Both the position numbers and the translations under genes were made by a program. Below, piece by piece: positions 10,731 through 48,061 of a stretch of DNA of 53,517 nucleotides. The notes under the pieces are model-generated. The model was not told where the DNA came from. It was given only the letters and a program-made list of their open reading frames with translations, and did not search any database. The number at the start of each line of letters is the position of its first letter. Position 1 is the first letter of the stretch. The DNA comes from a virus. Lineage: Duplodnaviria; Caudoviricetes. The stretch lies in the IMG/VR virus record IMGVR_UViG_3300036845_000533, positions 1 to 53,517 of that record. One strand, 5' to 3'.

Positions 10731-12008
10731 TCACTGGATGGACACCGCCGTTCCGATCCGTGCAGCGACATCAGCGGGAAATGCGATGCGGCCGCGGAGC
10801 AGGCTTTCGAGGTGGGTCATCTGTGAAATGGTAAGCGAATCGACGGGCTGCATGTAGACTCTTGCTGTCATGTCCGGCTTCGAGTGGCCGAGCTGCGCCT
10901 GCACTGCTTTGAGGTCAAGGCCGACGAATTGAGAGATCGTCGCAAAGGATCGGCGCAGCATCTGGAAGTCAACGTCCTGAACCGGAATTTTAGCGCGTAC
11001 CGCGGCCGGTCGTAGGATGCCCCGCACGATATTGGAATAGATTGCCGGTCGGCCAGTGCTGCCGCGGAACAGAACATCCTTCGGGCCAATCCCTTCGGCT
11101 GTGATCCAGGCATGCACCTCGGACGCGAGCTCCGGCGGAAGGTGAATGAATCGAGAGGCCCCGGTCTTCGTGCTCTTGACGTTTCTCCAGCGATCGAAGG
11201 CCTTGTTGATGTGGATCCAGGTCGGACCGACATCCGCCACCGTGACGGCCATCAATTCGGCCGGCCGGGTGGCGCCGAGGATCGAAACCCAGACGATCAG
11301 ACGATCCCGGATGCTCAGTTCGTTGAGTAAGGCCGGAAGATACTGCGGCGGGAAAACACTCTTATCCGGCTTGATCGCCTGCTTGGGAACTTTGAGCCGA
11401 ACCGTCACAGAACGCGCCGGATTGCGTGTCGTCATTCCCCGTTCCAGAGCGAGATCGAACACGGCTCGAAGGTTCGTTAAGACATGCGTGGCATACGACG
11501 TACTGATGCCCTTCTTGATCACCTTCTTTTTTCGAACATCCTGCCGGTGAGCTAGCGATCCCATGAACCGCTTGAGATCCTCCGGCATGATTGAATCGAC
11601 CTCACGCTGACCCAGCGCGGGAATGATCGAATTATTGAAGATCGACCGGGTATTACGGCGCGTGCCTTCTTCCCAGTCGACTTCCCGCATGGTCAGGTAA
11701 TCCTCACAAAGATCTGCTACCTTTGCTCGTCCTGTGGTGGCCACAGCCTGGCCGGCCTGGCGGCGCAGCCATGCAACGTGCAGGTCTTCCGCCTGGCCCT
11801 TGGTTAGTGCGGCCTTGGTCCCCAGGATGCGCTTGCGGCGCAGCCGGCGTTTGGTCCCGTCCGGTCCGACCTCGTGCACATACCAGAGGCCCATCCATTT
11901 CTTTTCGCGTTTGCCGACCAGTTCGACCCATCCGTTCTGGTGGCTCTCCCGGTGGCGGTGTGCGGCGCAATATGCGGCAAGGTCCAGCTGTGTTTGTCCG
12001 TCCCTCAT
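10731..12008 (-). CDS. int: Tyrosine integrase
   Basis: GATRPAEL, KSTKTG, FQMLRRSFAT, QLGHSKPDMTARVY. Confidence 0.93.
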   Translation of the reverse strand: MRDGQTQLDLAAYCAAHRHRESHQNGWVELVGKREKKWMGLWYVHEVGPDGTKRRLRRKRILGTKAALTKGQAEDLHVAWLRRQAGQAVATTGRAKVADLCEDYLTMREVDWEEGTRRNTRSIFNNSIIPALGQREVDSIMPEDLKRFMGSLAHRQDVRKKKVIKKGISTSYATHVLTNLRAVFDLALERGMTTRNPARSVTVRLKVPKQAIKPDKSVFPPQYLPALLNELSIRDRLIVWVSILGATRPAELMAVTVADVGPTWIHINKAFDRWRNVKSTKTGASRFIHLPPELASEVHAWITAEGIGPKDVLFRGSTGRPAIYSNIVRGILRPAAVRAKIPVQDVDFQMLRRSFATISQFVGLDLKAVQAQLGHSKPDMTARVYMQPVDSLTISQMTHLESLLRGRIAFPADVAARIGTAVSIQ

Positions 12009-12591: not shown

Positions 12592-12807
12592 TCACTGGAT
12601 CGGAACGCCTTTCGCCATCGCTCTATGGCAACGTTCCAGAAAGGCCTCGATGTCGGATTCGCGGAAACGGACCGATTTGCCGAGCTTTAGCGACGGAAGG
12701 ACCGGCCGATATCGGCCTTCAGCATGATCCATGACCCACGCTACTGAGACGTTGAGCATTTCCGCTACCTGTCGCGCATTGAGCAGCGCCGCGGTTGGTT
12801 TAGTCAT
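12592..12807 (-). CDS. Excisionase/AlpA-like HTH protein
   Basis: LLNARQVAEMLNVS..WV...LPSLKLGKSVRF..SDI. Confidence 0.8.
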   Translation of the reverse strand: MTKPTAALLNARQVAEMLNVSVAWVMDHAEGRYRPVLPSLKLGKSVRFRESDIEAFLERCHRAMAKGVPIQ

Positions 12808-13431
12808 TAGACTGGCTTCCCTTCAAGGCAGAACTGGCAGCCAGGCGGATGCGTAATTCCGCCCGCGCATAGACCAGGCGCGATTTGACGGCTGTCTCAT
12901 TAATCCCCAATGCTGCAGCAACTTTACGGCGGGGCAATTCCTGGAGGTACCTCAGCGATATCACCCCACGCAGCAACGGCGGGATCCGCTTCACTTCCGA
13001 CCTGAGAAGTTGATTGAATTCTAAACAGGCAAATATGCGTTCAGGATCATCGTCCCCGGACCGCAGTTGAACCGGTACGCGTTCGTGAGCCAAATCCGCG
13101 GCGTCTAGAAAGACGAAGCGCCGCTCTCGATGCCGCAAACGCATCAACATCCGGCACTCATTCACAACAATTCGCCCCAGCCACTTCCCGAAACCTGCCT
13201 CATCCTGGCTCTGTAACTGATCCAAATGCTGGTAAGCCCTTAAGATGGCATTCTGCGCCTGATCCTTTGCCTCGTCGCGGTCGCGCAGAACATGAGAGGC
13301 TATGCCCACACAGTTCCCCCAATGCCGCTCAACGAGCATGCCAAATGCCTTGTCGTCGCCTTTCCGCGCCAGGTCCACAAGTTGCAAATCTGAATAATTC
13401 GTTGGCTTGGTCATCACACTGGCTTCCCTTC
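12794..13431. repeat. Imperfect 31-bp direct repeat flanking the sigma gene
   Basis: 12794-12824 versus 13401-13431, 27/31 identical, with perfect core actggcttcccttc. Confidence 0.8.
12800..13414 (-). CDS. ECF-type sigma-70 factor
   Basis: D..LV..ARKGD.KAF..LV, F.KWL.RIVVNEC, VAAALGINETAVKSRL..AR. Confidence 0.88.
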   Translation of the reverse strand: MTKPTNYSDLQLVDLARKGDDKAFGMLVERHWGNCVGIASHVLRDRDEAKDQAQNAILRAYQHLDQLQSQDEAGFGKWLGRIVVNECRMLMRLRHRERRFVFLDAADLAHERVPVQLRSGDDDPERIFACLEFNQLLRSEVKRIPPLLRGVISLRYLQELPRRKVAAALGINETAVKSRLVYARAELRIRLAASSALKGSQSND

Positions 13432-13635
13432 GGGCGTTCCGCCGAAACACTCGAGACACACGATCACGAGCCCCCGCCGATGCTGCGCCAATAGCCGCTG
13501 GCTCGACGGCGACAGCACGATCGGTGCCTCGCACCGCTGGCAGCGGTCCGTCACCGTGCTTCCGGCTGCTAGCGGCACCCTCGTATCAAGATCGGCCACG
13601 CGCATCGAGACGAGCACAACGGGTTCGTCGATCAT
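13414..13635 (-). CDS. Small Zn-finger protein
   Basis: CQRC...CLEC. Confidence 0.6.
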   Translation of the reverse strand: MIDEPVVLVSMRVADLDTRVPLAAGSTVTDRCQRCEAPIVLSPSSQRLLAQHRRGLVIVCLECFGGTPEGKPV

Positions 13636-21335: not shown

Positions 21336-21623
21336 TTAGATCATCTTGTCGACGACCCGCTCCACGGCATCGTGCAGGGCGGCGTCGGTAATCTCGGCCC
21401 CGTCGGTCTGTACCTGCGCATCCATGACAGTCGGGGATTGGAGTTGGCCCGCAACAGCCTCCGGACTCTGATAGCAGAGCTGCCCCCACTTATAGCGGGA
21501 GTTGTGCCCTGGCGTGGCGGCGTCTTCGACCAGATAGTAGTTCGCGATTTCGAGCGCGGCCACTTTGATGCGGCTGCGGAACTCGGGATCGGTCATGAGC
21601 GCGGCGGATTCGGTGTATGTCAT
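21336..21623 (-). CDS. Hypothetical tail-fibre-associated protein
   Basis: Coupled to the tail fibre gene; last gene of the late operon. Confidence 0.65.
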   Translation of the reverse strand: MTYTESAALMTDPEFRSRIKVAALEIANYYLVEDAATPGHNSRYKWGQLCYQSPEAVAGQLQSPTVMDAQVQTDGAEITDAALHDAVERVVDKMI

Positions 21624-24600
21624 GCTTTCTTTCCTTTGATGATTGCTTCGAGTTCGTTTAGTCGCTTATCTACCTGCTGCAGCGCCAGCACGGCATGAAA
21701 CAAAATCTGGTTCGGATCGTAGCCCAGGATTTCGCTGCTCTCCGCATCGCCCGGACGCAATCTCACGTCGAAAGGATAGACGCTATCGGGCAGGGTCTCT
21801 TTCAATTCCTGTGCTACAACTCCGCTGGCGCGTTGTCCTTCCTTCATCCCGCCCAGGCCGTTCCATTCGAAAGACACCGGTCGCAGCCGGTTGACAATGG
21901 AAAGGCCACCTTCGAGATCCCGGATATTTCTCTTGAGGATCCGGTCTGACGTGTAGGCATACGTGACGTTCGTCTGGCTTCCTCCGTCATTACCACTCAC
22001 GCTCATGTTGATTCCGGCGGCAAAATTGATGGCCGGGCGTGTAGCTGTCGCCACGGAACTCCCATTGAGAAAAACCGTAACGCCAAAGAAGCCGATGGTG
22101 ACCGCCCCGGTGGAACCCGAAAGGCTTAGATTGGTTGATGTGTTGGTGGCGAGAGAACTAATGCCGGTATAGCCCAGAGTAACCGCACCGGTACTTGCCG
22201 ATGCTGTGATCGGAGCGTTCGCCGCAATCGAAGTAACCCCGCCGCCTCCCGTCGAGATCGGGTTGCCGTTCACGCGATAAGTTCCGGTGATATTGAGGTC
22301 ACCACTTACGTCCAATGCATAGGCCGGAGCTTTTGCGATGCCGACGTTGCCAATCGCGAATTGAAACACCGATGCACTAAGTTTCATCGGGGTATTCGCA
22401 GTATTGGCGTCATTCACCGCGCTGATCCCCAGGAATCCGCCGCCGCCGTCCGCAATGAAGAGATTCTCGTTGGTGGTCGTTCGCACCTGGAATGGCACCA
22501 GCGGATTACTCGTGCCAATGCCCACATAGCTGGTAGCAGCGACCCGCATTCGTTCGACCACATCGCCGCTGGTAGTGCGCGTCATGAAGATCAGATCACC
22601 AGCTGGCCCGGTGCTGTTCGTCACCACACACTTGATGGCAGAGGAAATGCCGAAGCTGGAACCAAAAAGGATCTGGCCCCCGTTATTAGCGCCTGCGCCC
22701 GAATCCTGCAGGTAAATCGTTCCGCCCGTGGCGTCTCCGTTGGTGTAGGAAGTCTTGGTAGTGCCCGCGCCGTAGACATGAAGTTGGCTCGCGGGCGTAG
22801 ATGTTCCGATGCCGACATTGCCCGCCGATGTTAGGCGCATGTACTCCGTACTATTTGCGAACATCAGGACGGGAGTATTGGAAAACGTTCCGACTCCGCC
22901 GCCCCCACCTGCGCCTGCTTGAATCCGCATATCAATTCCTGTAGCGGTCGAGCGGATCGCCCCGGCGACATCCAAGGGAACGCCCGGGGTCGCTGTGCCG
23001 ATGCCGACGTTACCGCCTGAAAACTCATGCACGCTGGCGCGGTAGCTAAGCGGAACATAGGCACTATTGGCATCGTTCATTGCCTGAACGATCAATACGG
23101 TTCCATCGGTAGTAACGCACAAATTTTCGTTGGCACCCGTTCTTACTGCCAGCGCACCGCCTGGAGTCGCTGTGCCGATGCCGACGCTGCCGCCAAGCGG
23201 GTTTAAGAGCAGATTATTATAGCCTGTGCCAGCAATACCGGCCTGTATGACACCGACATTATTCGTGGTGCCGAACCCGATCCACAGACTCTTGTTGGTG
23301 TTGCCCGTCGCGGGACTGCCGGTGATGATAAGCTGCGCCGCGCTCATCGTGGTCGTCAAATTACTGGCATCGCCAACAATCGTTGCGACACCATTTACGG
23401 CGGGATCGAGATTCACCGATAAGTGGTTCTGGCCCGATATCGTCGAAAAAAGTCTCCAGCTATTGGTGGCTGCGTTCAGGCCCACGAAACACTGCTCTGC
23501 GGCTGTGGAATTGTCAAGCCAGAACCCGGCCCCCGTTCCCGTCACATAACGCATACGGACGTGGCCAGTCACGTCCAGTGCTTCGGTGGGAGACGACGTG
23601 CCGATGCCGACCAAACCGGCGGCGCTGATCCGCATGCGCTCGGTGATGGTGGCCGCGCCATTATTAGTCTGGAAGACAATGTTGCCGTATCCCACGCCGC
23701 TCGTGAACGTACTCTCCGCGAACATAGCGATCTCGGCGTCAAGTTGACTGTTGGCTCCGTCGTACCCGAAGCCCCTGAGACCCGTCAGCTTGTCCCCGGC
23801 CTGCAATGCGGTGGGGGCGGCGGATGTCCCGCGAGCAACATGGGAAGCCCAATTACAACCCAAACTTGCTTGAGCGCCGGTGTATACAAACTGCGCCACG
23901 ACGGTGTTGGGACCGGTCGGGCCGGTTAACGTCAAATAGCCGTTGTTGTAATCGAACAGCAGGTTGGGCGATGCTCCCATCGCCCCGGCCTTATTGACCT
24001 GGACCTGTTGATCCGCGCCCGCCGCCGTTCCCGCAGCCGCCGTGGCCCACTTCACGCCAAGAACCTGCGTACTGTCGGCGGACAGTACTTGCCCATCAGT
24101 ACCCACCGGCAGCCGTGTGGTGGCGGTTCCATGCACCACGAGATCGCCCTTGGTCGTCATGGGATCTACCATCACATTCGGAACGCCGATCGTAATGTTC
24201 TGTGCGGACTGGCTGATGAGCACGTTACTTCCGCCGAGGAGTGTCACTGCTCCCGTCAAGGCTCCGGGCGAGAGCGAAGTAACGCCCACGAAGGCAGCGG
24301 GCGCGGCCCACTTCATACCTAAATCCTGAGTGGTGTCCACGGTGAGGATCTGCCCCGCAGTGCCGACTGGCATACGAGTGGTCCCCGCCGTTAAGCCATG
24401 CACGATCAGATCGCCCTGTGAGGTGGTGGGGTCGGCCATGCCTGTCGAGCTGTTGATATTCGGGACGGAAATCGCAATCTGCTGGCCGGAAGAGTTGGTG
24501 ATCTGGCTCAGGGAGACATTCGCCCCCGCCGTAAAAATCACCGCCCCACTCAATGCGCCAGGCGAAATCGTGGTCACGACCATAGTCGAAGGCGAAGCCC

Positions 24601-25834
24601 ATCTCAGGCCCGTCGACTGCGTGGAATCTGCGGTCAGTTGCTGACCATCGGTGCCGACCACGATGCGCGTCGTCGCGGAACTCGTGCGGGTAATGAGATC
24701 GCCTTTGGCGGTCGTCGGGTCAACTAGAAACTGTGGCGCCGTGGTGATCTTGGACCAGGGCAAGCTGGTGATCCAGGCCGGATTCGCGTACGACTGCGTG
24801 GCATCGACAGCGTTAGTAACCATCGACACGGTGTAGTCCCCGGCTTGCGCGATCACGGCTCCCGTGCGGCCAAAGGCGCTGGTGACGCCAATGGCGGGCG
24901 GCGGCTGCCAGCGCAGGCCCAAAGGCTGCGTCGAATCCGCGACTAGCATGTAGCTGTTCGCCCCGACGGGGAACCGCGCGACCGCTGACGAGCCCCGCAC
25001 GATCAAATCCCCTAACGTCGTGGTGGGATCCGACAGAATGGCAGCTAGTTTAGAAAAATCCACCGCAGCGTAAGCTGCTCCGTTCCAGTACCAATAGACC
25101 GAAGCTCCCTGGTAGCCGATGCCGCCGTAACCGGCATCCGGACTCACGTATGAACTGGAGGACGGCCACGCTTTGGGACTGAAGACCATATCGGAGCGGA
25201 TGCGCATGGTGGTGTGGGTGATGCCGGTGACCTGAACCACTGCAGCCGAGCCGTCATCTGCGCCGCCACCCACCAACAGATGACCAGTGCTGTAATTAAA
25301 AACGAGGTTGGGCGAAGCACCCGGCACACCCGCTTGATTGAGCATCACCTGGGTATCGGAGCCGGGAGCGGCGAAGCCCGTGATAGTGCCCCAACGCAAC
25401 CCGGTGGACTGGCTGGAATCGCAAATGAGAATATGCGAGTCGGCGCCCACCGGCAGTCGTGTGGGTGGCGCTCCCGAGGGCTTGGCGATCAAATCGCCCT
25501 TGGTGGTGGTGGGGTCGAGCATGCCCTGGGCCGCGACGCCCCACTTAACGCCTAACGTTTGGGTGTGGTCGATGACCAGGGCGAGCCCGTCTGTAGTGCC
25601 TATCGGCAACCTTTGCAGTGATCCCACGGTGCCAGCTGTAGGCCCGTGGACGATGAGATCGCCTACCGTGGTGGTGGGATCCGTGAAGACGCCGCTGATC
25701 GTGCAGTTATAGAGATTGAAGCCACCGCCATTGACATCCCCGCCCCAGTTCCGGATGTCGTTCGCCAGGTTATTCAGGTCGACATTGAGTAACTTGTCGC
25801 TGGTCGTAAAACTGTTATTACTGAGCCAAGCCAT
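21620..25834 (-). CDS. Tail fibre with C-terminal intramolecular chaperone (peptidase S74)
   Basis: VGIGT repeats; SDRILKRNI...LRPVSFEW...GVVAQEL. Confidence 0.9.
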   Translation of the reverse strand: MAWLSNNSFTTSDKLLNVDLNNLANDIRNWGGDVNGGGFNLYNCTISGVFTDPTTTVGDLIVHGPTAGTVGSLQRLPIGTTDGLALVIDHTQTLGVKWGVAAQGMLDPTTTKGDLIAKPSGAPPTRLPVGADSHILICDSSQSTGLRWGTITGFAAPGSDTQVMLNQAGVPGASPNLVFNYSTGHLLVGGGADDGSAAVVQVTGITHTTMRIRSDMVFSPKAWPSSSSYVSPDAGYGGIGYQGASVYWYWNGAAYAAVDFSKLAAILSDPTTTLGDLIVRGSSAVARFPVGANSYMLVADSTQPLGLRWQPPPAIGVTSAFGRTGAVIAQAGDYTVSMVTNAVDATQSYANPAWITSLPWSKITTAPQFLVDPTTAKGDLITRTSSATTRIVVGTDGQQLTADSTQSTGLRWASPSTMVVTTISPGALSGAVIFTAGANVSLSQITNSSGQQIAISVPNINSSTGMADPTTSQGDLIVHGLTAGTTRMPVGTAGQILTVDTTQDLGMKWAAPAAFVGVTSLSPGALTGAVTLLGGSNVLISQSAQNITIGVPNVMVDPMTTKGDLVVHGTATTRLPVGTDGQVLSADSTQVLGVKWATAAAGTAAGADQQVQVNKAGAMGASPNLLFDYNNGYLTLTGPTGPNTVVAQFVYTGAQASLGCNWASHVARGTSAAPTALQAGDKLTGLRGFGYDGANSQLDAEIAMFAESTFTSGVGYGNIVFQTNNGAATITERMRISAAGLVGIGTSSPTEALDVTGHVRMRYVTGTGAGFWLDNSTAAEQCFVGLNAATNSWRLFSTISGQNHLSVNLDPAVNGVATIVGDASNLTTTMSAAQLIITGSPATGNTNKSLWIGFGTTNNVGVIQAGIAGTGYNNLLLNPLGGSVGIGTATPGGALAVRTGANENLCVTTDGTVLIVQAMNDANSAYVPLSYRASVHEFSGGNVGIGTATPGVPLDVAGAIRSTATGIDMRIQAGAGGGGGVGTFSNTPVLMFANSTEYMRLTSAGNVGIGTSTPASQLHVYGAGTTKTSYTNGDATGGTIYLQDSGAGANNGGQILFGSSFGISSAIKCVVTNSTGPAGDLIFMTRTTSGDVVERMRVAATSYVGIGTSNPLVPFQVRTTTNENLFIADGGGGFLGISAVNDANTANTPMKLSASVFQFAIGNVGIAKAPAYALDVSGDLNITGTYRVNGNPISTGGGGVTSIAANAPITASASTGAVTLGYTGISSLATNTSTNLSLSGSTGAVTIGFFGVTVFLNGSSVATATRPAINFAAGINMSVSGNDGGSQTNVTYAYTSDRILKRNIRDLEGGLSIVNRLRPVSFEWNGLGGMKEGQRASGVVAQELKETLPDSVYPFDVRLRPGDAESSEILGYDPNQILFHAVLALQQVDKRLNELEAIIKGKKA

Positions 25835-33694: not shown

Positions 33695-34138
33695 TTAAAC
33701 TCTCCAGCCACGCGCGATGCGCGCCAGCGGAACCCATGCCAGGCCGACCTTGGCGGGAGTAACGATCTCGCGGCCATTGAGATCCATGATGCCCATGGAG
33801 TAGCCGCTGCCGCGCCGGATCAGGGCCACGTCCCCGCGCTGCATGCGCAACGGATCGACTTCCGGCATCTGGTGGTCCCCGCAGACCTTCTCAACCAGAG
33901 CCATCACCGACGTGCTTCCGACATGTTCCCGCACCAGATGGAGCGCCTCGGTGCGGTTCCGGTAGCGGCCCCGGACCCAGTCGGCCATGTCTCGTCCAGT
34001 CATCGCCAGGACGGCATCGCAAGTAAACAGACCGCAATCGAGGAGGCCATAAGCGAACCACTTCGACCGGCTCCCTTCGAGAAATACATCCAGACGGGAC
34101 GGCCAGTCCCACAGCCGGACCAGACCCTCATCAGGCAT
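33695..34138 (-). CDS. NlpC/P60-like tail assembly protein (DUF6950-like)
   Basis: FAYGLLDC.LF..DAV.AMTG.D, RGDV. Confidence 0.8.
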   Translation of the reverse strand: MPDEGLVRLWDWPSRLDVFLEGSRSKWFAYGLLDCGLFTCDAVLAMTGRDMADWVRGRYRNRTEALHLVREHVGSTSVMALVEKVCGDHQMPEVDPLRMQRGDVALIRRGSGYSMGIMDLNGREIVTPAKVGLAWVPLARIARGWRV

Positions 34139-40339: not shown

Positions 40340-40804
40340 CTAAACGACCGTTTCGGTGATCGCGCCGGAAATCTGGAGTTCCGTCGAGAACTCGATGGGC
40401 TTATTCAGCTCAAACGGGCCGGGATCATACTTGGTGATGTATCCGGTGCCGGTGATGGTGTACGTTTTCGTTCCGCGCAAAATGGACGAGACGATCTGCC
40501 ACGGAATGAAAGCCTGACTCTGGGCCATGGTCAGAAACTGGAGATGTGTAATGTCGCCGGTATGCTGCCCGGTGATCTTGATGGTGCCGGGTTTGATCAT
40601 GCCGGGAATGAATTCTTCCGTGTTGTTGATCGAAAGCAGATGGCTCGTGGCGACCTGCGGCACATCGAGAAGCGTGGCCGTGATCGATTTGACTTCGACC
40701 ACGTTGGTGAAAACGGGCGGACTCGCGGTGGTTCCGATGGCAAACGTGGCGAGATAGCCAGTGGTGGCTTTCGAAGCATAGGTAGCGGGCGGTGCAAACG
40801 GCAT
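40340..40804 (-). CDS. Major tail tube protein
   Basis: EVKSI, TSHL.S....EFIPGM.KPG, GYIT, LQISG. Confidence 0.85.
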   Translation of the reverse strand: MPFAPPATYASKATTGYLATFAIGTTASPPVFTNVVEVKSITATLLDVPQVATSHLLSINNTEEFIPGMIKPGTIKITGQHTGDITHLQFLTMAQSQAFIPWQIVSSILRGTKTYTITGTGYITKYDPGPFELNKPIEFSTELQISGAITETVV

Positions 40805-40806
40805 GT

Positions 40807-41229
40807 TCAGACTCCTTGAATCGGACGTTGAGAGGGGAGAGGAAAGGTCGGGTAATAGTTCACATAGAACTCAATCAGCCGGCGGTAGTTGCGTGCTGCG
40901 GGATCTTGCTCGAAATCAATCATGTCGGACGGGAAGATGCTGTCTACCTGCGTCGCGTCGGGATCGGTCAGTATTCCCCGGTAACCCATCAGGACCGCGG
41001 AAATGCGGTCGGCCAGGTCGAAAGCGGTGGCCTGAGTCGTACCGAAGCAGTTGAACTCCATGCGGCGCTGCGCCATACCTCCCGGAACCTGCAAGCCGGC
41101 GATGGTGCGTTCGTGAATCGTGAGAAATGTATAATTTGGCAGGGTCGCGTTCGAAGGCAGTTGATTGGCAAAGCCGCCGATGAAGTTCAGCGACGTGTTG
41201 ATCAGCATGACCAGCCCTTGTTCGAGCAT
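40807..41229 (-). CDS. Tail terminator (DUF3168-like)
   Basis: MLEQGL...QLP...TLP..T; position before the tail tube gene. Confidence 0.75.
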   Translation of the reverse strand: MLEQGLVMLINTSLNFIGGFANQLPSNATLPNYTFLTIHERTIAGLQVPGGMAQRRMEFNCFGTTQATAFDLADRISAVLMGYRGILTDPDATQVDSIFPSDMIDFEQDPAARNYRRLIEFYVNYYPTFPLPSQRPIQGV

Positions 41230-41235
41230 TCGCGA

Positions 41236-41931
41236 CTAACTAAGCGGCGCGAGCTTCAATGGACCCGCGTGAAGAAAAGTGGAGTCAGCCGGAAAGCTGT
41301 CTCCGATAACCATATGGCGGTAGCCATCCTCCAGGGTGTTGCCGGGGTCCTGGCGGTTGTACCACTCGAATTTGCGCACGCGGTCGTCGCGGTACATGTA
41401 CCCGAAGTGCAGGAGCTGCGCGTCGAGCCGCCGCGCGACACTCTGCAGGGGGATAGGCGCGTTGCCGCAATGAAACCCGCCGCGAGCCCGCGCCATGAAC
41501 GGAGAGCCATCTGGCCGGAACATGCTGGGGCGCGAGAAATGGCCGTATATGCCGTCCAGGCGGATCTGGTTTTCCGAGTCCCACAGATAAAGAATCTGGA
41601 ACGAGTAGCAGCCCCTCGGACTTCGCATGGCAGCCAGCACAGCCGGCACCGACGAGGGCGCCAGCATCTCATCTCCGTCGATCATCAGGACCCACTCGTC
41701 GCCATCGCATTCGCCCAGCAACCAGTTCTTGTCGCGCGTCTCGTCGAGCCCCTCGAAGGGAGAAGCCAGCACCTCGACGCGGGGAATCGCCGCGCAGATC
41801 TCCGGCGTGCCATCGGTCGAGTGATCGTCCATCACGAGGACGCGATCGCACACCGGCAGGATCGACCGCACCGAGCGGGCGATCCAGCGGGCTTCGTTCT
41901 TTACCCTGAGAAGCCCGATCATGTCAGACAC
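41236..41931 (-). CDS. Glycosyltransferase, GT2/GT-A fold (5 of 5)
   Basis: VKNEARWI, DDHSTDGT, IDGDE, LLHFGY. Confidence 0.9.
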   Translation of the reverse strand: MSDMIGLLRVKNEARWIARSVRSILPVCDRVLVMDDHSTDGTPEICAAIPRVEVLASPFEGLDETRDKNWLLGECDGDEWVLMIDGDEMLAPSSVPAVLAAMRSPRGCYSFQILYLWDSENQIRLDGIYGHFSRPSMFRPDGSPFMARARGGFHCGNAPIPLQSVARRLDAQLLHFGYMYRDDRVRKFEWYNRQDPGNTLEDGYRHMVIGDSFPADSTFLHAGPLKLAPLS

Positions 41932-42544
41932 ACTGGAATGGAACCCCGGACCATTTCCGCTTCAGCCGTTGCCGGTAGATGCGGTTCTGAGCCTGCCACG
42001 AAGAATCAAATGTGCTCAAGCCGCTATGCGTCGCTTCCGCGGGCGGGACCACCACCGGGATCCCCCGCGCGTGCGCCTCGAGGCAAAGGTCTTCGACATG
42101 ACAATGAAACCCGTCGAAAGTCTGCTCATCAAAGCGCAGACCGGAATCCCGCCGGAAGAACACGGAACAGGAATCGAGCGTCGAGACGGGACCCGGCACG
42201 TCTTCAATGGCGCCATCAGACTGGACCTGCAACTCCGTGTTATGGCACCAGCGGTAATGCCGGTCCAGATCAATCCCGACGATGCCCGTCACGAAGCCAT
42301 TGGCGGCCATCGCCGTAAAGGTTTCGAGGGCGCCGGCGCCCAGATAGACATCGGCATGCAGCAGGCCGAATACGGGAGTTGCCGCCGCATCGAGAAAGCG
42401 ATTGCCGATCGCAGCGAGCGATTCGCCGTGCGCGTTCACCACCCGCGCAACGACCATCGCCATCCGGGTGTGAAGCGTTGAGAAGGCGCATGACTGCTCA
42501 ACATCCTTGCTCACGACGGCGATGGTCAGTTGCGGCGTCTGCAT
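41924..42544 (-). CDS. Glycosyltransferase-like, GT-A fold (4 of 5)
   Basis: LHADVYL, TLD, FDE..FDGFH..VEDLCL.A. Confidence 0.75.
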   Translation of the reverse strand: MQTPQLTIAVVSKDVEQSCAFSTLHTRMAMVVARVVNAHGESLAAIGNRFLDAAATPVFGLLHADVYLGAGALETFTAMAANGFVTGIVGIDLDRHYRWCHNTELQVQSDGAIEDVPGPVSTLDSCSVFFRRDSGLRFDEQTFDGFHCHVEDLCLEAHARGIPVVVPPAEATHSGLSTFDSSWQAQNRIYRQRLKRKWSGVPFQCV

Positions 42545-42545
42545 T

Positions 42546-43103
42546 TTAGTTGTGGATGAAAAGTACCCCTGGCACCTTGGCATGCCTGACGCCTGCCGCA
42601 ATAAGATCGTCGATCAGAAAGTGATCGGCCATCCGCAACCCGTCCGGCCGCTCCCACGGAAAGGGCTGGAAGCACTCGCGTTTGACCAGAAAGCCGCCCT
42701 TGTCGATATCGAGGCCAGGCTCGACCCGGATCGGCGCATAGACGCCGGTGAGCCGCGGATCGTAGAGCATGTCGCAATACGTCAGATCGGCTTTCGGCTC
42801 GAGCATCAACTCGAGGAAGCGCGGCACGTAGTAACCGTCGTCCGAGGGAAAGCAGAGATACTCGCCCATGGCATGTTTCGCGCCCAGATTGGAGGATTCG
42901 TAGCAGTTACTCTTCCGCGCCGCAATGTACTGGAAGCGGTGGTCATACATATCGTTCAGCCTCTCCAGGTTTCCCCACTCGCGGTCCCCGTTATCGACCA
43001 CGATCACGTCGAAACCCGGCTCGGTCTGCACCTTGAGCGACCACAGCAGGCAGGCCAGCGCGTCGGGACGGTCGTAGGCGGAGACGATGAAGCTACACTT
43101 CAT
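42546..43103 (-). CDS. Glycosyltransferase, GT2 (3 of 5)
   Basis: SFIVSAYDRP, VIVVDNG, NLGAKHA.GEYLCFPSDDGYY. Confidence 0.9.
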   Translation of the reverse strand: MKCSFIVSAYDRPDALACLLWSLKVQTEPGFDVIVVDNGDREWGNLERLNDMYDHRFQYIAARKSNCYESSNLGAKHAMGEYLCFPSDDGYYVPRFLELMLEPKADLTYCDMLYDPRLTGVYAPIRVEPGLDIDKGGFLVKRECFQPFPWERPDGLRMADHFLIDDLIAAGVRHAKVPGVLFIHN

Positions 43104-43804
43104 CCGGCAGCCTCCCATTTCGCCTGATAGATCCTGCGGCCCGGCTCAATCGACAGCGGCTGGTATTCCCCTTTGTAATGCCGGAAGGTCGAAGGCAGCA
43201 TGGCGTGATCGACAAAGCAATGATCGTAGATGCCCACGTCGAGACCGGCCAACCGCACCCGACGGCAGTAGTCATTGTCTTCCCAACCGTAAATCGGAGC
43301 GCCCGTCTCGTCGGACCCGCCAAAGCGTTCATCGAGGAGACCCACCAGATCGATCGTCCTCCGCGGAATCAGGACAGCTATGAAGCACACCATTTCATCG
43401 GCGCGCAGTCCGATCCCGCGCGGATTCTGATTCACATTCCCGGCGTTGTTCGCAGCCGCGGCGATGAGGCCATAATTGCTGTGCTCTGCGGCGAGACTCT
43501 GCAGCGTCGAGAAGCCGAAGGGCGTCTGGAGCAGCGCGTCGTCATTCAGTAGAACCACATCGCGCGCCGCCGCTGCCTGGATGCCCAGATTACAGTTCCT
43601 CGCGAAGACGAAGGGCGCGACGCCCGCAAGGATTGTCGAGTGGTCGACAATGTACTGCCGGAACTCGCCCTTCACTCCGAAGTCGATGCCGTCGTCGATC
43701 ACAATAATCTCCACACCCGGATCGTAGTGATGCACGTTGATAACGCACGCCATGAGATTCCGGAGACTGCGGCTCGGGATGACAACCGTGACGGAGGATT
43801 TCAT
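43100..43804 (-). CDS. Glycosyltransferase, GT2 (2 of 5)
   Basis: VTVVIP, IIVIDDG, FARNCNLG, LLNDD, GLLDERF, EDNDYCRR. Confidence 0.92.
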   Translation of the reverse strand: MKSSVTVVIPSRSLRNLMACVINVHHYDPGVEIIVIDDGIDFGVKGEFRQYIVDHSTILAGVAPFVFARNCNLGIQAAAARDVVLLNDDALLQTPFGFSTLQSLAAEHSNYGLIAAAANNAGNVNQNPRGIGLRADEMVCFIAVLIPRRTIDLVGLLDERFGGSDETGAPIYGWEDNDYCRRVRLAGLDVGIYDHCFVDHAMLPSTFRHYKGEYQPLSIEPGRRIYQAKWEAAG

Positions 43805-44472
43805 GCGGCTCCGATGGCATGTAGAGAGTGCCGCCGCCACGCGTAGGAAGGCGGATCACAGGGTGCCCAGTTGCCGCTCTCCTCTACCGCGCGCGGACTG
43901 GTGTTGCCGGGATGTATGGTCGCGTGCATCAGATCGATGCGCTGCGAGATCGCCAGCACTTTGGCTTGTCCCGCCACCAAAGTGAAGGCCAGATCCTCAT
44001 GGATGTGCTGGTCTTCGAAGGGATGCTCGAGCGCCCAGCTGCGCCGGTACGCAAGCGAGGTTCCCAGGCACAGCGCCGCGTTGCCCGAGTACAGATGCCA
44101 GCGTTCGCCGTCGGTGAAGCGCATAGACCGATAGCCCGTCACCATAGCCGGCGAATGGCTCAGGATCTCGGTCTGATCGCGCATCCGTCCCGGTTCGGAG
44201 TGATCGTCGTCGTCCCATGTGGCGATAATTTCGCCCTGCGCCATCCGGACGCCGATATTCCGCTTCGCGCCGATGGTAAACCCTTCAGCCACATGGACAT
44301 GCCGGACCCTGGATGTGTCCCTGGGGATCAGATCCGAGACATCGTCGCCATCGGCAAGGATCAGCATTTCCCGCGGCTCATAGTCCTGGCGCAGGAAACA
44401 CGCGATCGACTGCGGAAGCCAGTTGCGCCGATTGCGGGTCAGGCAGAGAGCGGTCACCAGAGGGCGTTGCAT
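43801..44472 (-). CDS. Glycosyltransferase, GT2 (1 of 5)
   Basis: PLVT.LC.T.NR, QDY, IGAKRN, GEIIATWDDDD, ED. Confidence 0.92.
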   Translation of the reverse strand: MQRPLVTALCLTRNRRNWLPQSIACFLRQDYEPREMLILADGDDVSDLIPRDTSRVRHVHVAEGFTIGAKRNIGVRMAQGEIIATWDDDDHSEPGRMRDQTEILSHSPAMVTGYRSMRFTDGERWHLYSGNAALCLGTSLAYRRSWALEHPFEDQHIHEDLAFTLVAGQAKVLAISQRIDLMHATIHPGNTSPRAVEESGNWAPCDPPSYAWRRHSLHAIGAA

Positions 44473-44477
44473 ACGGT

Positions 44478-44870
44478 TTAAGGGGAGGACTCGTCTCCGA
44501 GGGCAAGACAGTTCAATACCAAAATCCGGTTCAGTGCCATGACGTTCGCCACGGACTGAATCACGTAGGTATCGCCAAACTCGGTCACCAGACGCATCCC
44601 GCCAGCGATCCCCGGCTGGTACCGGATCGCCACCGGGATAAACACCATGCTGGTGGTCTGCCCACCCCGCACCGCGTCGACGCCGCGCACCGGGTTCAGC
44701 GCCGCCTTCGCGGTGGTAAATGTCGTCCATGTACTGAGCAGGCCGCCGGCGTCATAGGCGGGCGGGCTTCCCGGCCCGTACGATTGAATCGTGACCAGAT
44801 GGCGCATCCGGCCCATCTCGATGGTGGGCCACCCGTTGACGACTTTGACAAACTCACTAAGGACCGCCAC
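44478..44870 (-). CDS. Head-tail adaptor / head closure protein
   Basis: GRMRHLVTIQ, IRYQPGI..GMR. Confidence 0.85.
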   Translation of the reverse strand: MAVLSEFVKVVNGWPTIEMGRMRHLVTIQSYGPGSPPAYDAGGLLSTWTTFTTAKAALNPVRGVDAVRGGQTTSMVFIPVAIRYQPGIAGGMRLVTEFGDTYVIQSVANVMALNRILVLNCLALGDESSP

Positions 44871-44876
44871 TGTCGG

Positions 44877-45614
44877 TTATCCGCGCGTCCCACAGAAGTC
44901 AAGCATCATGTGCTGCATAAACATACGTTCGATATTGGACGGCACCAGGCCAACGGCGCCGCGGTTTTCAAACCAGAATCCGACCAGATTCAGGATGGCG
45001 AGGTTCAACATTTGAGGAATCCCCGACACGATCGTGGAAGTTACTTGCTGATTCGGCGGCACGGAGGCAATGGTGTGCGTGTCGATGGCCGTCGGATCCG
45101 GATCGTACCCCGCCGTGAAGTTGATCTGAAGCGAATTCGCCACATACAGGGACGCGGGCCAATACTGCCCCGGCATCGGAAAGATGCGCGGCGGTTCGGT
45201 GATGCGGTCGAGCACGAAGTCCACGTCCTGCAGCAGTGTCTGGGTGTTTCCGGTCGAATCGATAAAGATCATGCCCTGAACGCTAATGACGGGCGGATAA
45301 GCCAGCTTGATCATCTGCGAGTAGTTCCAAAGTGTCGAGGAGTACCGCGGCAGACTGTAGTAAGCGGGCGGATAGGCCGATTGCGACTGAATCGTGTCCG
45401 TGTAGTACGGGAAGCTGTCGAGCACCTGCGTCCAGGTCCGCTGCGCCAGTCCGCGTCCGGTAATGATCTCACCCTGGATGCGTGCCGCGGTGATCCAGTT
45501 CGTGATGAAGACATCCTCCTGCGTCCAGGAGTCGGGAACGCTCATGAAGAGCCGTGCGTCCGCCAGAGTCACCGGTTCAGCGGTGGGAAGTGAAGTCTCT
45601 CTGCAATAGCCCAC
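44877..45614 (-). CDS. Head-tail connector (gp6-like)
   Basis: EPVTLADAR, I.AAR, FTAGY, AIL.LV..WFENR. Confidence 0.88.
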   Translation of the reverse strand: MGYCRETSLPTAEPVTLADARLFMSVPDSWTQEDVFITNWITAARIQGEIITGRGLAQRTWTQVLDSFPYYTDTIQSQSAYPPAYYSLPRYSSTLWNYSQMIKLAYPPVISVQGMIFIDSTGNTQTLLQDVDFVLDRITEPPRIFPMPGQYWPASLYVANSLQINFTAGYDPDPTAIDTHTIASVPPNQQVTSTIVSGIPQMLNLAILNLVGFWFENRGAVGLVPSNIERMFMQHMMLDFCGTRG

Positions 45615-45838: not shown

Positions 45839-46321
45839 TCAACTCAACACGCCACCACCGGCATTGGTGGCCGTCGTGCTTGTATCTGCCATCCACGTGC
45901 CGTTGTACGACTTCAGCTTCACGGAATTGCCGATGAACCCGTTCATGGTCACGACATGGTAGATCGAATTGATCCCGTTCGCGGGCGTGGTGACCGTGTG
46001 GGCAAAAGCGGTTCCTGACAAGATGGTCAGTGTTTTGCCGTCGTCCGTGCCAGCTACCGGCAGCGCCAGTGTCAAAGCAGCAAGGCTCGTCGCCATGATG
46101 ACCGCCGTGCCCGACTTGATGCCGATCGCGCCGCTCTGAACTTCTGTCTCGACTTTATCGCCCGCCGTGATGTCCGGAGAGCCTGGACCGACCGTGCCAG
46201 CGAAGCCGGGCAGCGGTGTGGCGAGTTGCGATGGTGCCAGGACCACCACCGGATGGACTGCTGCATCATGAGTGGTTTCATGAGCGGTTTCATGGACTGT
46301 ATCTAGCATTTTGGTACTCAT
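45839..46321 (-). CDS. Putative capsid decoration/structural protein
   Basis: AAGGAG RBS; Thr-rich beta protein (LTLALP...DGKTLTI); near the capsid gene. Confidence 0.6.
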   Translation of the reverse strand: MSTKMLDTVHETAHETTHDAAVHPVVVLAPSQLATPLPGFAGTVGPGSPDITAGDKVETEVQSGAIGIKSGTAVIMATSLAALTLALPVAGTDDGKTLTILSGTAFAHTVTTPANGINSIYHVVTMNGFIGNSVKLKSYNGTWMADTSTTATNAGGGVLS

Positions 46322-46352: not shown

Positions 46353-46538
46353 TTATCGGCGCAGAGGGGCGACGCCCAGCAAGCCCGACAGGAAATAAAG
46401 CAGCCAGAGAACCACGCCCACGATGATGACGATGCGAATCATACGTGCGATAGCCGGGTCCATCGGAATCATCTGGATGAGCCATAAAGCCAGACCGACG
46501 GCGACCAGAACGATGACGATCTCGATCAGGAATCCCAT
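46353..46538 (-). CDS. Small two-TM membrane protein (Thivi_2564-like; possible holin)
   Basis: Two hydrophobic helices around IPMDP; AAGGAG RBS. Confidence 0.7.
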   Translation of the reverse strand: MGFLIEIVIVLVAVGLALWLIQMIPMDPAIARMIRIVIIVGVVLWLLYFLSGLLGVAPLRR

Positions 46539-46639: not shown

Positions 46640-48061
46640 TTAGTAAGCGTTGGTCAGATAGGCCACTGGGTGTGTTCCAGCGTCCAATAAATTTCCGTCC
46701 CCCCTGTAAAATGCGAGGAATGCCACCTGGCCAAAATCGGCAAAGCGCTCTTCAAGTCTGATAACAGACATTTCCTTGACGCGCCGGATCATGTACATCT
46801 TGAGCGGGCCAAAGACGACGCTGATCACGCTGACGGTGGGTGAAGAGGCCACCGTCTGCAGCTGCGCCATATCGTTGTTGATCGCATAGCCGTAGCCATT
46901 GATCGTGTCGGGCTCTTTCACTGCGACATTGGGCACCCACAGCGGACGCCCATACTTGTCCTTGATCTTTTTGAGCGCCTTCAGCGTCAAATCATGGAAC
47001 ATATACTTCGCTCCAGGGCGGTACAGCGGATCGATGCTGTGTTCCAGATTGGTCATATCGTCCGAGCCGATGGTGTTGCCGCCGCCCACGCCGTCATTGG
47101 CTATGGAACCGATGGCGAGAGGCCCGGCGTTGGCCGCGGTGACGATGCCCTTGGGCTGGTTCGAGCCGGTGCCGAGGGTAAACAGGTTGTTCTGGATGCG
47201 GCCCAGGCGGATAGCAAACTTCTTGGTTAGGTAGGAATCGAAGTCGAAGGCCGAATCCTGCAGCAGTTCGATCGAGATTTTGATCAATTTGGAGCTGAAC
47301 TTATAAGCTCCGAACATGATCTGCCCGAGAGTGACGTCCTGCGTCGAAACCTGCTGGTTTTCCGCGATCAGTTCGCCCATCACGGTGGTGTCGTTATCCG
47401 TCGGGAAGGGCAACGGCTGGCCGGTCGCCGTATCGAAAGTATCGGACTCCTGCAACATCGGGCCGTAATACTTCATGGCTTCGGTGACTTTATCGACGAA
47501 CCCCACCGGCACGAAGAAGCCGGTGGTCGCGCCGGGATAGGCACCCTGGCCGCCGGAGCCCATGTCGCGCACTTCGCGCGCTGCTCCGAGAGAGCGCAGC
47601 TCCCGGTTGATCAGATCGAGGTCGTCCTTATCGAGCGCGCTGCGGATCATCTTGGAGGAACGGTACAGAACCTCCTTGTCCCGGTCGCTGATGCCGCGGA
47701 TGAGATACGCGCCGCGCATACGCCGCTCGTCTCCATAGCGCAGATAGTTGAAATAGGCGCGGTAGTATTCGTCGGCGGCGTTCTTCTGTGCCGGCGCGTC
47801 GTTCGGATCGAGGTGCTGGAATGCGGGGTTCGGCACTCGGCCGTTGGGCGGCGCGCCGGTCGCGCGCAGTTCCTCGTCGGTCTTTTCGGCTTTCTCCATG
47901 CGCGTGATGCGGGCACCGAGCGACTGGAGGTCGGCGTCCATAGCGTCCCATTTGGCGATGTCTGCTTTGGTTTTCAGGCCGGTGCTGTCGGTCAGCTCCT
48001 GCATGTCGTGGAATATCTTCGCGCGCTCCTCGCGGAGCGCATGACTTTCATTGGCATTCAT
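46640..48061 (-). CDS. Major capsid protein, HK97 fold with N-terminal delta domain
   Basis: GFFVP, ISIELLQDS, G.G..QPKGI, KIKDKYGRPLW. Confidence 0.95.
   Translation of the reverse strand: MNANESHALREERAKIFHDMQELTDSTGLKTKADIAKWDAMDADLQSLGARITRMEKAEKTDEELRATGAPPNGRVPNPAFQHLDPNDAPAQKNAADEYYRAYFNYLRYGDERRMRGAYLIRGISDRDKEVLYRSSKMIRSALDKDDLDLINRELRSLGAAREVRDMGSGGQGAYPGATTGFFVPVGFVDKVTEAMKYYGPMLQESDTFDTATGQPLPFPTDNDTTVMGELIAENQQVSTQDVTLGQIMFGAYKFSSKLIKISIELLQDSAFDFDSYLTKKFAIRLGRIQNNLFTLGTGSNQPKGIVTAANAGPLAIGSIANDGVGGGNTIGSDDMTNLEHSIDPLYRPGAKYMFHDLTLKALKKIKDKYGRPLWVPNVAVKEPDTINGYGYAINNDMAQLQTVASSPTVSVISVVFGPLKMYMIRRVKEMSVIRLEERFADFGQVAFLAFYRGDGNLLDAGTHPVAYLTNAY

Follow-up and report, generated by a model that had tools for sequence, protein, structure and literature searches.

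What do five tandem glycosyltransferase (GT) genes do when they stand in the middle of the virion structural operon of a tailed phage? The question is raised by IMG/VR record IMGVR_UViG_3300036845_000533 (Duplodnaviria; Caudoviricetes), a linear virus record that was analysed at its complete length of 53,517 bp (hereafter the window; positions without a locus prefix are those of this stretch). An earlier note on this DNA had proposed that the five genes, at 41236-44472, form a system for glycosylating the virion. Judging from gene content, gene order and comparison with relatives, late-expressed cytoplasmic glycosylation of virion proteins by this cassette has about an even chance of being the correct explanation.

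The cassette consists of five co-oriented minus-strand open reading frames (ORFs) between the head-closure and tail-terminator genes. The products are numbered GT1 to GT5 from the head-closure side, and enzyme families are named below with the word family. Three of the products passed the curated PF00535 cut-off of 23.3 bits, namely GT1 (43801-44472, 223 aa, 53.5 bits), GT3 (42546-43103, 185 aa, 52.9 bits) and GT5 (41236-41931, 48.4 bits; 231 aa from GTG 41931, or 228 aa from ATG 41922), and by these matches they are GT2-family glycosyltransferases. GT1 also gave profile matches to GalT1 (5hea), heparosan synthase, PglI and SpsA, and GT5 to PF13704 (38.5 bits) and phrog_13126 (2e-9). The remaining two failed the Pfam cut-offs of the GT2 clan: GT2 (43100-43804, 234 aa) scored 20.6 bits against PF13641 and GT4 (41924-42544, 206 aa) 21.6 bits against PF13712, each below a cut-off of 27. 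GT2 nevertheless matched PHROG galactosyl- and glycosyltransferase families over nearly its full length (phrog_29879, galactosyl transferase, 5e-6; another at 5e-5), gave a six-frame PF00535 match of 4.9e-4 (below cut-off), and when expanded to a 14-sequence profile reached chondroitin synthase in the PDB at 6e-4. Together with its motifs VIDDG, NDD and WEDNDY, these matches make it a probable GT-A glycosyltransferase.

In GT-A enzymes an acidic DxD-type motif that binds the metal and nucleotide sugar follows a central beta-strand. Acidic motifs of this kind were found in GT1 (DDDD, residues 87-90), GT2 (NDD, 87-89), GT3 (SDD, 87-89) and GT5 (DGD, 85-87), whereas GT4 carries H-A-D at 63-65 in place of a canonical DxD, plus a conserved HxHxED. 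Both GT4 motifs are invariant in 7 of 7 orthologues, which suggests an active site. A fold was modelled for GT4 alone, as the weakest member. Its AlphaFold2 (AF2) model (predicted local distance difference test, pLDDT, 77.7; predicted template-modelling score, pTM, 0.80) had as its top Foldseek match the GT-A protein majastridin with uridine diphosphate (E 1e-8, query template-modelling score, TMq, 0.65), followed by RmlA, chondroitin polymerase and ppGalNAc-transferases, and the GT4 profile matched 2qgi at 6.5e-3. GT4 is therefore described here as a predicted GT-A-fold protein and is the least certain glycosyltransferase of the five. The earlier note had spoken of five divergent GT-A enzymes, each with a DxD-like motif and no transmembrane segment. 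The motif is present in all except GT4, and the enzyme assignment is secure at the Pfam level for GT1, GT3 and GT5 and depends on weaker profile and fold evidence for GT2 and GT4. The other two descriptions stand: no 19-residue Kyte-Doolittle window exceeded 1.75 in any of the five (a neighbouring 61-aa ORF reaches 2.92), and pairwise phmmer comparisons gave E ≥ 0.0018, a mutual divergence so strong that the five are not the product of recent tandem duplication.

From the head-closure gene to the terminator gene, the junctions are a 5-nt gap, two ATGA overlaps (GT1/GT2 and GT2/GT3), a 1-nt gap (GT3/GT4), an 8-nt overlap (GT4/GT5; with ATG 41922 as the start of GT5 this becomes a 1-nt gap) and finally a gap of 6 nt, a total range of -8 to +6 nt. 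The upstream boundary is a head completion/closure protein (44478-44870, minus strand; PF05521 Phage_HCP, 53 bits against a cut-off of 25; phrog_25, Hc1). The downstream boundary is a 140-aa tail terminator/completion protein (40807-41229, minus strand) that had no Pfam or PHROG match and was recognised in the ESM Atlas (features 0.93; structural template-modelling score 0.81-0.87 to PF11367/PF12691 clusters). The coordinates, lengths and junctions reported for the GT genes in the earlier note were correct to the base, and its view that there is no room for a separate promoter or terminator agrees with the motif counts, which match shuffled expectation: consensus promoter-like sites numbered 3 (3.2 ± 2.1 in shuffles) in a scan that covered sigma-70-type sites (a promoter could also lie inside upstream coding sequence), and terminator-like sites numbered 10 (6.7 ± 2.8 in shuffles). 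The G+C content of the GT genes (0.59-0.63 overall; 0.73-0.80 at third codon positions, GC3) is inside the range of the flanking virion genes. Across the sigma-70-type motifs, junctions and GC/GC3 values checked, none of the hallmarks of a moron (its own promoter or terminator, intergenic space, deviant composition) was found for the cassette. The GT genes lie embedded in the late virion operon and are apparently co-translated with it, and we infer that they are expressed late in infection.

A six-frame search of the whole record with PF00535 returned four matches, three of them above cut-off and all inside the cassette. As the earlier note had stated, no flippase, sugar-synthesis or hydroxymethylase gene was found in the record. 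Because CheckV rates the record as 69% complete, gene absences in these 53.5 kb alone are weak evidence, and the searches for DNA-modification and export genes were rerun in near-complete cassette-bearing relatives.

Relatives were sought by two routes, through the capsid (36 IMG/VR loci) or the head-tail adaptor (13 loci), and separately through GT1. The second route returned 691 database proteins at E ≤ 1e-5, and GT1 relatives were encoded on 230 IMG/VR contigs, of which the best 80 supplied the synteny counts. In 75 of these 80 loci the GT genes have recognised virion genes for neighbours: on both sides in 40, upstream only in 28 (mostly loci that end soon past the GT genes) and downstream only in 7. 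Of the rest, four had no called GT ORF and one had no recognised virion gene. The commonest order, found in 31 loci, was protease-[capsid]-GT1-GT2-(GT3 or GT4)-GT5-adaptor-head closure-terminator-tube. In 2 of 2 loci checked, PF05065 identified the gene between protease and GT genes as that of the capsid. These synteny counts, as do counts of GT-bearing loci given below, rest on ORF-plus-HMM (hidden Markov model) maps; the profiles behind the maps were iterated on the very loci under study, and the maps can blur the GT1, GT2, GT3 and GT5 labels. Of the five, GT1 has the broadest conservation and usually leads the cassette. Orthologues of the others (tblastn, E ≤ 1e-6) were present in 60 loci for GT2, 37 for GT5, 8 for GT3 and 8 for GT4. 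Identities were 34-70% for GT3 and up to 63% for GT5, and the closest relative, L052, carries GT1-GT2-GT3-GT4 in identical order up to its contig end.

Among the relatives found through capsid or adaptor, 23 loci span the region from capsid to terminator or tube (near-duplicates L016/17, L023/24 and L038/39 included); GT genes lie inside this region in 7 of them and are lacking in 16. A further nine truncated loci have GT genes in the head-neck region, and in one Acidobacteriia metagenome-assembled genome (MAG; locus L040) a GT1 orthologue is the sole GT between head closure and terminator. On these maps the cassette characterises the lineage as a whole, and its place is always among the head-neck genes of the structural operon.

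The cassettes of relatives hold more than glycosyltransferases. Class I S-adenosylmethionine (SAM), FkbM-type and Methyltransf_24 methyltransferases, a PIG-L family deacetylase (40.5 bits) and a TOD1/MUCI70-like GT were all found in the slot, and by these domain matches the contents are parts of a variable glycan-building locus. One cassette (L124:8392-9516) includes a DegT/DnrJ/EryC1 sugar aminotransferase (2.3e-81), which indicates that some such phages also tailor the nucleotide sugar itself. In relatives that lack GT genes the slot is empty or holds collagen-repeat, fibre-like, Ig-like-domain or glycine-rich-domain proteins or large unknown proteins, which may be neck or head fibres; the slot looks like a site at which this phage group keeps virion-surface accessories. 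In three loci (L035:12568-13832, L049:10890-13359 and L027:12911-14677) it was the interval between adaptor and head closure that held collagen-repeat, podophage fibre-like, glycine-rich or Ig-like proteins.

Outside phages, the closest relatives of GT1 were multi-domain proteins of the class Terriglobia (E 1e-45 to 1e-55). Their occurrence is sporadic, with a GT1-family match at E ≤ 1e-30 in 11 of 301 sampled genomes. Twelve genomic places were examined, and comprised three prophage structural modules, two short stand-alone genes without recognised virion neighbours and seven long proteins (563-1130 aa) with no virion genes nearby. The Pfam scan, run on six of the seven long proteins, showed combinations of GT2-family with Methyltransf_24/25, GT4-family or GT9-family domains, as in the 758-1130-aa fusions of L190, L192, L193, L194 and L198, in which the GT2-family domain is GT1-like. 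The parts list is like that of the phage cassettes, fused here in one protein and divided there among separate genes, and the cellular proteins are possible ancestors of the phage genes. A different arrangement was seen in L195:5320-7011, a 563-aa frame on a 9-kb contig that joins a Prim-Pol primase/polymerase domain to a GT1-like GT2-family domain; it could be a genuine fusion carried by a mobile element, or else two genes read through.

By identity to the window, the relatives fall into two head lineages. In the window's own lineage, identity is ~50-69% for capsid and adaptor but only 41-51% for GT1. The majority lineage has ~22-29% identity for portal and adaptor and no detectable capsid similarity, yet identity there is ~50% for GT1, ~46% for GT2, ~54% for GT3, 50-63% for GT5, 37-53% for the tube, ~37% for the terminator and ~40% for head closure. 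The locus L056 is an example, with a portal at 26% identity against 53% for GT1, 47% for GT2, 54% for GT3, 50% for GT5 and 47% for the tube. This pattern indicates that the cassette and a neck/tail module have been combined with unrelated heads, the position of the cassette varying. Simple vertical co-inheritance of the GT genes with the head genes was considered and rejected, the Spearman correlation between GT1 and adaptor identity being -0.46 (n = 41); for portal and adaptor it was 0.83.

The protein with which the cassette does associate is the tail tube. The window's tube protein (40340-40804, minus strand, 154 aa) lies two genes downstream of the cassette and was recognised by its fold (AF2 pLDDT 71; Foldseek matches to monocin, lambda gpV and 80alpha tubes, E 5e-8 to 5e-7, TMq ~0.65). 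Tubes like it are called type A, and the other tubes of the group type B. Loci found independently of GT genes comprised five of type A with GT genes, one of type B with them, 13 of type B without and none of type A without, and the loci ascertained through GT1 comprised 15 of type A and 6 of type B. A search with the type A tube returned 39 IMG/VR loci; among the 28 new ones with more than 3.5 kb of upstream sequence, 27 carry GT genes, the exception being the weakest match (25% identity) and not type A. Likewise, of 58 metagenome contigs with a type A tube, 45 were too short, and GT genes are present on all 13 whose upstream sequence exceeds 3.5 kb. Across the loci with enough upstream sequence, no type A tube without a GT cassette was seen, and the link holds despite changed head lineage and cassette position.

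Ser/Thr-rich or otherwise distinctive C-terminal tails were sought on the capsid, tube, terminator and 160-aa post-capsid protein of GT-bearing and GT-less relatives, and only the tube family differed. Separately, type A tubes share a near-invariant loop, T-H-L-x-S-P-N-A-T-E-E (residues 56-64 in the window's tube), that the type B tubes of relatives without GT genes lack. Its S-P-N-A-T-E-E portion occurs in 23 of 39 unique type A sequences and an N-x-S/T sequon in 33 of 39; the window has S-I-N-N-T-E-E, between two predicted strands. The loop is a lead, and the sequence gives no ground for arguing N- or O-linkage, since L040, the relative with one GT, reads S-P-S-S-T-E-E here. A complex prediction for GT1 with the tail tube scored 0.28 against a mark of 0.32 and weighs neither way.

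If the cassette does glycosylate the virion, five soluble GT-A-type enzymes would be made late together with head, neck and tail proteins, draw on host nucleotide sugars in the cytoplasm and glycosylate at least one virion protein before or during assembly. GT1, near-universal and usually first, would be the likeliest priming enzyme, with GT2 to GT5 acting as extenders, as branchers or at further sites. The type A tail tube would be the leading candidate acceptor, and the capsid and a putative 160-aa decoration protein could also be modified. The capsid is HK97-like (46640-48061, minus strand), as recognised by tblastn against annotated capsids (best 31% identity, E 7e-57), and no cultured relative above 31% identity was found. 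The 160-aa protein (45839-46321, minus strand), encoded downstream of the capsid gene, is a phage-only protein without a Pfam or PHROG match; its nearest ESM Atlas clusters are viral hypotheticals, one of which has Phage_cement_2 in 29% of members, a lead that makes it a possible decoration or cement protein and a further possible glycan acceptor. A close relative carries two tandem paralogues of this protein (L002:3116-3839). As a whole, the cassette would be a portable variable module swapped among phages with unrelated heads, akin to an O-antigen locus for the virion surface.

Several observations weigh against the virion as the target. No orthology to the proven mycobacteriophage enzymes was detectable in a 7-sequence database (best pair GT1 and Che8 gp108, blastp 1e-5, 29% identity over 119 residues; all others phmmer E ≥ 0.005). 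The capsid C-terminus is alike in GT-bearing and GT-less relatives. The sets behind the tube-type counts overlap, the same assemblies recurring in them, and are related by descent, which makes the link an association and not statistical proof; and since 7 of the 27 GT-bearing loci with a called tube have the other type, the tube cannot be the sole acceptor. The failure of GT and head genes to diverge together fits a portable module and also fits a non-virion acceptor. GT2-family enzymes without transmembrane segments often act on lipid-linked acceptors, so that the lack of such segments is no bar to a lipid acceptor, and the closest cellular cousins of GT1 are domains of GT-GT-methyltransferase proteins from the same bacterial class, an architecture typical of lipid-linked polysaccharide synthases. 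These last points would suit remodelling of the host envelope, in which the enzymes build or alter an undecaprenyl-phosphate-linked glycan that host machinery exports, in lysogeny or in late infection, with superinfection exclusion, serotype conversion or keeping progeny off debris as variants. A tyrosine integrase (10731-12008) marks the phage as temperate, relatives are auto-named 'O-antigen biosynthesis protein' or 'cell wall biosynthesis' in source databases, and cassette content varies as in O-antigen loci. The location of the genes speaks the other way: they lie mid-way in the late structural operon, ~30 kb from the integrase, with tight junctions, promoter and terminator motifs no commoner than expected, and native composition, and in the relatives virion genes stand beside the cassette in 75 of 80 loci and the att/integrase end never does. 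Neither GtrA (PF04138) nor Wzx (PF01943) was matched in the window and four near-complete relatives, the GTs themselves have no transmembrane segments, and the tube-type link would be left unexplained. Envelope remodelling is therefore judged unlikely.

Sugar hypermodification of DNA, with the GTs glycosylating hydroxymethylated bases against restriction as in T-even phages and the MT/5mYOX/GT clusters of Pyle et al., is very improbable. Phage GT-A enzymes can glycosylate 5-hydroxymethylcytosine (5hmC) and their clusters sometimes lie near structural or terminase genes, according to their preprint (bioRxiv 10.1101/2023.12.21.572611), and with a record ~69% complete a partner gene could be off-record. 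However, the window had no match to Tet_JBP (PF12851), thymidylate-synthase-like (PF00303) or C5 methyltransferase (PF00145) models at E ≤ 1, none of the five cassette-bearing relatives rated 90-100% complete had a Tet_JBP or ThyS match, and no DNA polymerase or nucleotide-metabolism gene was present among 20 scanned non-structural ORFs. Five GTs, with the methyltransferases, deacetylase and aminotransferase of relatives, far exceed known DNA pathways, and Pyle et al. regard the ~65% of GT contigs that have no base-modification partner as 'less likely' DNA pathways. A further alternative keeps the enzymes in the cytoplasm and gives them another acceptor (a small molecule, or a protein of the host or of the phage's non-structural set), or has some of them, especially GT4, non-catalytic or nucleotidyltransferase-like. 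GT4 lends itself to this, being without a canonical DxD, under the Pfam cut-off and matched in fold, after majastridin, to RmlA nucleotidyltransferases, and the movement of the cassette among phages with unrelated heads also fits; yet the HAD and HxHxED motifs of GT4 are invariant in its 7 orthologues, the seat among head-neck genes is constant, and cassettes go together with one type of tube. The sugar-tailoring enzymes that accompany the GTs, moreover, suggest a glycan of several sugars whose acceptor is abundant and produced at that stage. We regard this alternative as improbable. Glycosylation of virion proteins is the preferred reading.

The genes of the window are almost all on the minus strand. 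Their order begins with the small terminase (PF05119), large terminase, portal, protease and HK97-like capsid genes, and continues with a 61-aa hydrophobic ORF, the 160-aa protein, a 69-aa protein, the head-tail adaptor (44877-45614, minus strand; phrog_442, 3.9e-12) and head closure. After GT1 to GT5 come the 140-aa terminator, the 154-aa tube and two genes in a possible chaperone position, then a tape measure of 1129 aa and a set of large tail proteins that includes one with a Peptidase_S74 chaperone domain. RecT, an extracytoplasmic function (ECF)-type sigma factor, the tyrosine integrase and MerR/helix-turn-helix (HTH) regulators are also encoded. This content and order, with an integrase and tail genes, is that of a temperate siphophage. 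The 61-aa ORF (46353-46538, minus strand) is very hydrophobic, with two likely membrane spans and no Pfam match, and its position among capsid-region genes is odd for a membrane-like protein. The tail fibre with the C-terminal endosialidase-chaperone (Peptidase_S74) domain is 1404 aa long (21620-25834, minus strand), and a 147-aa tail-region protein (33695-34138, minus strand) is a strong member of DUF6950 (2.8e-30). The sigma factor (12800-13534, minus strand; Sigma70_r2, r4 and ECF models) adjoins the integrase and may drive late or lysogeny-specific phage transcription; since the phage has its own ECF-type factor, promoter scans of the E. coli type may miss real promoters.

In order to place the host, species-representative genomes were searched with the adaptor profile. 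This gave 13 loci, 12 of which are titled as Acidobacteriota (Terriglobia, Terriglobales, Acidobacteriaceae, Alloacidobacterium and Bryobacterales). Several of the loci belong to contigs 0.36-4.8 Mb long and are hence integrated prophages. The thirteenth, L049 (CABMCB010000040.1), is in a bin titled 'uncultured archaeon', probably through a binning error or as a contig of a free phage. The G+C content of the window (~59%) is compatible with an Acidobacteriota host, and on these relatives the host probably belongs to that phylum, in keeping with the earlier suggestion of a non-actinobacterial phage, 12 of the 13 genomic relatives having come from MAGs of Acidobacteriota. The one listed sequencing run, a soil metagenome of DNA, may be where this phage was sampled. 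Among cultured phages, the cassette had no match at the DNA level.

Precedents are found in mycobacteriophages. Virion glycosylation is reported for Che8, Corndog and Myrna, with capsid and tail tube as the reported targets of the mycobacteriophage GTs (PMC11600133; PMC12363180; PMC12619734). In the Cluster O phage Corndog, gp35-gp38 comprise an O-methyltransferase and three GTs in the portal-protease interval of the structural operon, and the enzymes are described as missing from purified virions and present in infected cells (PMC4351075). In both Corndog and the window, soluble enzymes for glycan building are encoded in tandem and in one orientation within the structural operon, as judged for the window from its genes. 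Corndog pairs its three GTs with a methyltransferase, as do the cassettes of the window's relatives, whereas the window has five GTs and no methyltransferase; the slot is portal-protease in Corndog, head closure-terminator in the window and capsid-adaptor in most of the window's relatives. The Cluster F phage Che8 has three tandem GT genes, gp108-gp110, of which gp110 is described as essential for capsid glycosylation (PMC12363180). Unlike those of the window, they are found near the right end of the genome and outside the structural operon, and the families differ, the similarity of GT1 to gp108 being weak and of a general GT-A kind. The host phylum differs as well, being Actinomycetota for Corndog and Che8 and Acidobacteriota for the window.

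Other known systems resemble the window in part. DNA-hypermodification clusters also have phage GT-A enzymes, sometimes several per cluster, that use host nucleotide sugars. They need a generator of hydroxymethyl bases (and a C5 methyltransferase for 5hmC), to which Pyle et al. tie DNA-glycosylating GTs (bioRxiv 10.1101/2023.12.21.572611). Neither was found in the window, nor was the generator found in five near-complete relatives, and the window's cassette is in the morphogenesis module, not the DNA-metabolism module. Prophages of the serotype-converting gtrABC type are temperate phages with glycosyltransferase genes. In comparison with gtr modules, the window has no GtrA-like flippase, no membrane-embedded GT, no integrase/att adjacency and no separate transcription signals. 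The chlorovirus PBCV-1 encodes a cytoplasmic multi-GT machinery, independent of the host endoplasmic reticulum, that decorates its major virion protein; it is a eukaryotic giant virus with dispersed GT genes rather than an operon cassette, and its enzymes are unrelated. Searches of the accessible literature turned up no account of phage GTs glycosylating virions beyond the actinobacteriophages. The novelty implied by the earlier note is nonetheless lower than it seemed, since Corndog already has GTs in its structural operon (PMC4351075). The principle is known from mycobacteriophages, and what is new here is the different enzymes, slot and host phylum.

In its widest form the proposal would be that a large soil phage lineage, unrecognised until now and most likely of Acidobacteriota, obligatorily glycosylates a dedicated tail tube type with its conserved, exposed S-P-N-A-T-E-E loop, and perhaps other surface proteins, by means of a horizontally exchanged, hypervariable cassette of GT, methyltransferase, deacetylase and aminotransferase genes that gives the particles 'serotypes'; that this is the first such system outside actinobacteriophages; and that many GT2-family genes listed in soil as carbon-cycling auxiliary metabolic genes (AMGs) are really virion-modification genes. 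Taken together, these statements are offered tentatively and are on the doubtful side. Such genes do appear in soil-virome papers as auxiliary metabolic or 'moron' genes (PMC11924767, PMC11222151): GT2-family genes are listed under carbon utilisation as AMGs for viral operational taxonomic units (vOTUs) of tundra soil (PMC11924767), and GT4-family genes are counted as AMGs in a global soil virus atlas (PMC11222151). The seat of the cassette among virion genes and its tie to a tube type argue for a structural role over auxiliary metabolism, for those of the published GTs that may belong to such cassettes. If virion glycosylation is the correct explanation, it would change how GT genes in soil viromes are read; the finding is widespread and bears on soil-virome annotation, and is not categorically new. 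There would be no mammalian immune system in soil to explain a glycan coat, and possible benefits would include protection from proteases and desiccation, altered adsorption to extracellular polysaccharides (EPS) or minerals, and masking from host receptors or defence sensors. Virion glycosylation would then not be peculiar to mycobacteriophages and would be a common strategy among the phages of a very abundant soil phylum.

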